Part shown: positions 13,691-63,718 of the stretch, in pieces
How the letters are laid out: the number at the start of each line of letters is the position of its first letter
Position numbering within the stretch: position 1 is the stretch's first letter
NCBI RefSeq assembly: GCF_003334785.1
Contig: NZ_QOWV01000010.1
Origin: Escherichia coli
Lineage (GTDB): Bacteria > Pseudomonadota > Gammaproteobacteria > Enterobacterales > Enterobacteriaceae
Strand: one strand, 5' to 3'
Length of the DNA: 64,000 nucleotides
Made by a program: the position numbers and the translations under genes
The notes under the pieces: model-generated
Seen by the model: only the letters and a program-made list of their open reading frames with translations
The model's database searches: none
What the model was told of the DNA's origin: nothing

Positions 13691-14114
13691 CTGGTGGTTC
13701 GCCACATCACCCCGCCTCCGCCAGCTTTGCTGGGCATTCTGGTTGCTGATGTTAGTTACGCTCATTTTTCTGTCATCGACACACCATGAAGAGCGCGACG
13801 CATTAATTCGACTACGGGCAAGTCATCACCAGCAGTGGGCCGCACTGTATCGCCTGGTAGACACCACTCCCTTCAGCGAGGAAAAAACGCTGCCCTTTTC
13901 GCCACTGGATTTTCAGTTATCCGGCGCGCAACTGGTTTCCTGGCATCCATCCGCGCAGGGAGGCGAGTTGGCGTTGAAAACGCTGTGGGAAGCAGTGCCG
14001 TCGGCATTTACACGGCTGGCAGAGCGCAACGTCAGCGTGAGCCGTTTTTCGTTAAGCGTGGAAGGTGATGATCTTTTGTTCACGCTACAACTGGAGACGC
14101 CGCATGAGGGTTAA
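13674..14114 (+). CDS. hofO: HofO (PilO-like)
   Basis: 146-aa ORF with an N-terminal transmembrane segment; overlaps the hofN 3' end by 17 nt. Confidence 0.8.
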   Translation: MNMFFDWWFATSPRLRQLCWAFWLLMLVTLIFLSSTHHEERDALIRLRASHHQQWAALYRLVDTTPFSEEKTLPFSPLDFQLSGAQLVSWHPSAQGGELALKTLWEAVPSAFTRLAERNVSVSRFSLSVEGDDLLFTLQLETPHEG

Positions 14115-60152: not shown

Positions 60153-60440
60153 ATGCTGCACACATTACATCGCTCACCCTGGCTGACGGATTTTGCTGCG
60201 CTGCTGCGTCTGCTCAGTGAAGGAGACGAACTGCTATTATTGCAAGATGGCGTAACTGCCGCAGTTGACGGTAACCGCTACCTTGAAAGTCTGCGTAATG
60301 CCCCCATTAAGGTCTATGCCCTGAACGAAGACCTTATTGCCCGCGGTTTGACTGGTCAAATTTCGAACGACATCATTCTCATTGACTATACTGATTTCGT
60401 CAGACTTACGGTTAAGCACCCCAGCCAGATGGCCTGGTGA
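60153..60440 (+). CDS. tusB: Sulfur relay protein TusB
   Basis: 95-aa ORF directly upstream of the rpsL promoter. Confidence 0.9.
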
Positions 60441-60462
60441 TGGCGGGATCGTTGTATATTTC

Positions 60463-60940
<478 letters not shown>

Positions 60941-61021
60941 TGGTTCTCCGTTAAGTAAGGCCAAACGTTTTAACTTAAATGTCAAACTAAACTCGTAGAG
61001 TTTTGGACAATCCTGAATTAA

Positions 61022-61507
<486 letters not shown>

Positions 61508-61591
61508 TCCCTTCGGAGTTTTAGTCACCAGGCGGGCGCTTCCAGTAAGCAGCCCGCTTTGGGCTACTTAAATTGAACGCCTAAAAGATAA

Positions 61592-63718
<2,127 letters not shown>

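Follow-up and report, generated by a model that had tools for sequence, protein, structure and literature searches.

The stretch of E. coli DNA analyzed here, 64,000 nucleotides long and referred to as the window, carries the genes of the str operon in the order rpsL-rpsG-fusA-tufA, with which the annotation of MG1655, REL606 and ML35 is colinear. Based on the ORF listing and its translation, rpsG occupies positions 61037..61507 of the plus strand and encodes an S7 protein of 156 amino acids with the C-terminus ...AFAHYRW, followed by a TAA stop at 61505..61507 with T as the next base (UAAU context). The NCBIfam profile TIGR01029 (rpsG_bact) matched the product with a score of 236.7 bits (cut-off 135.85), residues 3-156 being aligned to positions 1-154 of the 154 in the profile, so that residue 156 of the window protein is exactly where this equivalog profile of bacterial S7 ends. 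In all of the 5426 E. coli genomes (5426/5426) the matching locus carries an rpsG annotation in RefSeq. The gene has the features of the short 'B-type' S7 allele, i.e., a stop at codon 157 and 156 amino acids ending in HYRW, and not those of the long MG1655-type allele (TTA for Leu at codon 157, 179 amino acids), since the middle base of the stop, the polymorphic position 61506, is an A here and a T in MG1655-type K-12. Downstream, on the same strand, the rpsG-fusA intercistronic spacer measures 96 nt (61508..61603). Its first 22 codons in the rpsG frame (61508..61573), which correspond to residues 158-179 in MG1655-type K-12 and judging from translation and codon usage are probably untranslated here, are all sense codons; they are closed by a TGA at 61574..61576, the stop of the K-12 long allele, which has A as the next base and precedes the fusA ATG (61604) by 27 nt. 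Minimum-free-energy folds placed a GC-rich stem-loop at 61531..61558 (GGCGGGCGCTT, loop CCAGT, then AAGC-A-GCCCGCT), and the fusA Shine-Dalgarno sequence GAGGAA is found at 61594..61599, its GAGGA being kept in all aligned spacers. The sequence-only reading of this DNA had placed the end of rpsG after ...AFAHYRW, the 22 codons and the TGA behind them exactly where we find them. The length of the open stretch is statistically unremarkable, as 36% of the stop-to-stop intervals in the six frames of the window reach at least 22 codons and 31% of shuffled versions of the 96-nt spacer remain open for at least 22 codons; its meaning lies in the base-for-base identity with the K-12 extension and not in its length. 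A sigma-70 promoter-like site (TTGACA, 17 nt, TAAAAT; 11/12 matches) was also observed at 60463-60491, about 75 nt ahead of the rpsL start codon (ATG at 60566), a position consistent with the str operon promoter.

The window was compared with the K-12 and B alleles, and the sequence of each could be read directly. Between 61440 and 61620 the window and MG1655 showed one difference, at 61506 (MG1655 coordinate 3473612), which is A in the window and T in K-12. The T makes codon 157 a TTA, that is Leu157, and therefore gives K-12 an S7 of 179 amino acids from a 540-nt rpsG (b3341). The first 156 residues of the S7 of MG1655, W3110 and EMG2 (b3341, NP_417800.1, 179 aa) are identical to those of the window protein, and the 22 codons of the MG1655-type extension are base-for-base those of window 61508-61573; the difference is codon 157, TAA in the window, where the extension would stay untranslated, and TTA (Leu) in these three strains, which in EMG2 was seen directly in the sequence. 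Thus, the 22 codons are indeed the extension of the 179-aa K-12 S7, in which the first stop is replaced by a sense codon, as the sequence-only reading had proposed. E. coli B strain REL606 has a 471-nt rpsG with TAA (ECB_RS16890, WP_001138043.1), and its rpsG DNA (61037-61507), stop and spacer up to the fusA start are all identical to the window, in line with the predicted outcome of the 3'-end comparison (TTA in MG1655, TAA in B) and with the assignment of the window to the short allele. The surroundings of REL606 are about 0.45% divergent from the window over 34 kb, whereas the rpsG locus is without difference. In rpsL, codon 43 of REL606 is ACA (K43T), the known streptomycin-resistance change, while the window has the wild-type AAA (Lys43) at 60693. 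In a five-way alignment, the K-12 strains WG1 and NCM3722 also showed TAA at codon 157, a 471-nt rpsG, a spacer identical to that of the window and a 156-aa protein identical to that of strain B, and WP_001138043.1 is the RefSeq rpsG product in REL606, ML35, WG1 and NCM3722 alike. Among deposited E. coli ribosome structures, a 179-aa S7 chain is present in 319 entries and a 156-aa chain in 44, indicating that both forms assemble.

From the short allele the sequence-only reading had concluded that the window represents a non-K-12 lineage. Browning et al. (2023; PMC9997739) reported that EMG2, MG1655 and W3110 have the S7-extending rpsG mutation in common, placed this mutation on their branch only, and described WG1 as a distinct K-12 lineage resembling NCM3722 and LS5218. 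For LS5218, Rand et al. (2017; PMC5699524, Table 2) listed the change 3473612 rpsG T->A, Leu157stop, relative to MG1655, the same as in NCM3722. Given that WG1, NCM3722 and LS5218, the last according to PMC5699524, also have TAA, the short S7 allele by itself does not exclude K-12, and the step from allele to lineage fails. The finding that the same reading had named as fatal to its account, a TAA in K-12 as well, is what the WG1/NCM3722/LS5218 branch displays and the EMG2/MG1655/W3110 branch does not. In favor of an origin of the window in the former branch, which would make it K-12 after all, are the TAA of WG1 and NCM3722 and the 99.97% identity of the window to K-12 across 64 kb. Both strains are among the near-best matches to 25-kb pieces of the window. 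Over these 64 kb, however, only 2 sites, pabA 44738 and rpsG 61506, distinguish NCM3722 from MG1655, while the window is separated from NCM3722 by 11 SNPs and a 5-bp indel; compared with MG1655 it shows 13 SNPs and the same 5-bp indel. The distance to the non-K-12 strain ML35 is 6 SNPs with no indel, and 7 of the 11 SNP states that separate the window from NCM3722, together with the indel state, are common to ML35 (positions 13866, 18788, 24118, 25453, 25970, 28725, 34240 and 57722). The indel is a deletion of AATTC at 24118, between yhfY and yhfX, relative to MG1655, NCM3722 and REL606; the presence of AATTC is the majority state (5005/5426 genomes) and is found in both K-12 branches, whereas the window and ML35 have the minority deletion. 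At SNPs 8376, 40373, 50873 and 53605 the window is unlike MG1655, NCM3722 and ML35. The markers of the EMG2/MG1655 branch are absent as well, as the window has TAA in place of TTA in rpsG and CGC in place of CGA at Arg150 of pabA, and it departs from K-12 at sites on which the two K-12 branches are in agreement. Of the complete E. coli genomes in the collection, none matched the window exactly, the best having 1 mismatch in 1-25000 and the best matches in 36001-61000 about 3 mismatches as judged from bit scores. A K-12 origin through the WG1/NCM3722/LS5218 branch is therefore very unlikely. The conclusion that the window is not K-12 thus stands on the 64-kb SNP and indel pattern rather than on the S7 allele, and its source is a phylogroup-A-like strain very close to K-12 and ML35 yet distinct from K-12.

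We also considered the status of the 22 codons in strains with the short allele, that is, whether they are spacer or coding sequence. A true conserved extension, reached by low-level stop-codon read-through in wild E. coli and made constitutive in K-12, would fit the extreme conservation of the spacer, which E. whittamii has in identical form and Citrobacter amalonaticus with a one-base difference, as well as the fact that the frame is open for 22 codons. Against this, the in-frame open length past the rpsG stop ranges among Enterobacterales from 0 (TAATAA) to 45 codons, with tandem TAATAA stops in several lineages, and the differences in spacer length between genera are not multiples of three. 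In addition, a CAI-like index computed with the window rpsL, rpsG and fusA genes as reference was 0.215 for the 22 codons and 0.654 for rpsG, and the lowest value of any 22-codon window in rpsL, rpsG and fusA was 0.46; the chance of such an open run is, moreover, about 0.3. An RNA hairpin that shows compensatory changes, described below, and the fusA ribosome-binding region account for the conservation itself, and UAAU is the strongest termination context. Read-through of a genuine extension is accordingly a highly improbable account. The noncoding nature of the 22 codons is seen directly in a codon usage far outside the range of the neighboring genes, in the open lengths of 0-45 codons and in the non-triplet indels, and on these sequence features they are rpsG-fusA spacer and not a decayed ORF.

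The distribution of the two alleles was determined in 5426 complete E. coli genomes with a 41-mer centered on codon 157, a design in which the central mismatch blocks megablast seeding. The TAA 41-mer was present in 5072 of the 5426 genomes (93.5%), E. coli B among them, and the TTA 41-mer in 348, while 6 had neither exact 41-mer. When TTA genomes were sampled across the ranking, 60 of 60 were named K-12 derivatives or genomes of K-12 size, the named derivatives including MG1655, BW25113, DH1, DH5alpha, AB1157, MC4100, HB101, TG1 and J53 transconjugants. A second position supplied a further count: codon 150 of pabA (Arg150, window 44738) shows a synonymous CGC->CGA change in MG1655, which is missing from NCM3722, ML35 and the window, and the MG1655 pabA allele occurs in 343 genomes, nearly equal to the 348 with rpsG TTA. 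The pabA position is thus a second marker of the EMG2/MG1655 branch of K-12, and the confinement of TTA to K-12 rests on this count and on the names or genome sizes of 60 of the 348 genomes rather than on a phylogeny of all 348. One record labeled as a plasmid among the E. coli genomes was observed to carry an rpsG 3' end of the TAA type. Related sequences likewise showed directly in which direction the base had changed. A search of species-representative genomes outside E. coli with the last 18 nt of the S7 CDS gave 120 loci, of which 118 were rpsG 3' ends, and in all of these 118 the stop directly follows TGG (...HYRW). Throughout the sampled Enterobacterales this stop is TAA, as in E. whittamii, Salmonella enterica subsp. 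arizonae, Citrobacter, Klebsiella, Enterobacter, Photorhabdus, Xenorhabdus and Morganella. Given the stop in 118/118 outgroup ends and the end of the family profile at residue 156, TAA is the ancestral wild-type state and TTA a mutation derived in one laboratory lineage. The converse, a long ancestral form with the TAA here as a derived nonsense mutation truncating S7, has in its favor only that the K-12 reference genome has the long form and can practically be discarded, as it is contradicted by the outgroup stops, by the profile end, by the presence of TAA across all E. coli backgrounds with TTA in a single laboratory lineage, and by the TAA of WG1, an early K-12 stock.

We therefore read the 3' end of the window rpsG as the ordinary and ancestral one of E. 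coli and the K-12 extension as a one-base read-through into the spacer, with a probability of about 0.96; none of the observations speaks against this. In the window strain, translation would end at UAA-U, directly behind Trp156, and yield the canonical 156-aa uS7 of about 17.6 kDa, and termination at UAAU is expected to be efficient and free of read-through. The spacer would remain untranslated and free to fold, and fusA would start from its own GAGGAA-N4-ATG. In EMG2, MG1655, W3110 and their many derivatives, a single A-to-T transversion turned the stop into TTA (Leu157), so that in MG1655-type K-12 the 22 additional codons are translated through the hairpin up to the stop UGA-A 27 nt before fusA, the product being the 179-aa S7 of about 20.0 kDa. 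That K-12 and other E. coli differ in the length of S7 has been known since the protein and the str operon were sequenced around 1980. Recent genome papers (PMC9997739, PMC5699524) restate it, and published work already covers the polymorphism, the direction of the change and its confinement to one K-12 branch; the review PMC10931766 contained nothing on the S7 extension. The K-12 release factor RF2 (Thr246) is weak at UGA, and the extended S7 becomes SsrA-tagged (PMC9997739 and papers cited there). This weak UGA termination and SsrA tagging of K-12 S7 should not apply to the window allele. The biological importance of the polymorphism is small. Base 61506 cleanly marks the EMG2/MG1655 branch but not K-12 as a whole, and annotators should expect rpsG to span 471 nt in wild strains and 540 nt in most K-12 strains. 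The long-allele rpsG of EMG2 (NZ_CP099588.1 409482-409949; locus L131, 4483-4950) is marked by RefSeq/PGAP as a pseudogene, 'incomplete; missing C-terminus'. This call is an annotation artifact of the read-through mutation that annotators should know of, the sequence being the normal MG1655-type TTA allele.

The spacer itself was examined in 65 distinct Enterobacterales sequences. The stem-loop at 61531-61558 was present in 65/65, and the center of the spacer folded much better than dinucleotide shuffles, with z = -3.56 for the window and a median z of -3.34 across the 65 spacers, 83% of which reached p <= 0.05. Since the arms are out of register between genera in the MAFFT alignment, pairs were counted with the arms anchored at the GGG/CCC core. 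The pairs flanking this core alternate between C-G and T-A, 36 versus 17 at one position and 38 versus 12 at another, counts that are suggestive and carry no formal test, as the anchored alignment had been adjusted to the structure itself and the spacers come from related organisms. A switch from G-C to A-T was seen in Enterobacillus and in one Providencia-like spacer, and in Photorhabdus both GGGT...ACCC and GGGC...GCCC occur. RNAalifold predicted no pairs from the unfitted MAFFT alignment of the 65 spacers. A scan of 60300-61800 on both strands with Rfam 15 (E <= 1) gave no match, and also missed the known S7-binding site between rpsL and rpsG. The hairpin was not reported by a terminator scan and has no T-run, its tail being TTGGGCTACTT; by this consensus scan it is not terminator-like, i.e., not an intrinsic (Rho-independent) terminator. 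Part of the spacer conservation is explained by the GC-rich stem-loop. A second feature is the block GAACGnC at 61575-61581, about 25 nt ahead of the fusA start codon, which is invariant in 65/65 aligned Enterobacterales spacers and is overlapped by the TGA of the K-12 extension (TTGAACG). A pairing of UCCCUUCG (61508-61515, just past the stop) with the fusA Shine-Dalgarno sequence, which appeared in many minimum-free-energy folds, was considered as a means of translational coupling and dropped as unsupported: the duplex scored -6.8 kcal/mol against -6.7 +/- 2.0 kcal/mol in shuffled sequences (p = 0.41), reached p <= 0.05 in only 11% of the 65 spacers, and was absent from Pantoea-like and Klebsiella-like spacers. 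A literature search for an rpsG-fusA hairpin found nothing relevant, and the conserved spacer hairpin is the only element here that has neither an Rfam entry nor a literature match. It is possible, though we consider it doubtful, that the stem-loop and the GAACG-C block act in cis as a functional RNA element in EF-G expression, one absent from Rfam; it might, for instance, bind a protein or determine processing or stability. In that case, the K-12 change from TAA to TTA, by sending ribosomes through the element, would be a natural perturbation of it and not just the source of a harmless S7 tail. At three Vibrio loci, no fusA start was seen in the approximately 110 nt past the rpsG stop. There, TAATAG or TAATAA closes rpsG, and a canonical hairpin with a T-run comes next, in contrast to the Enterobacterales spacer hairpin, which is without one.
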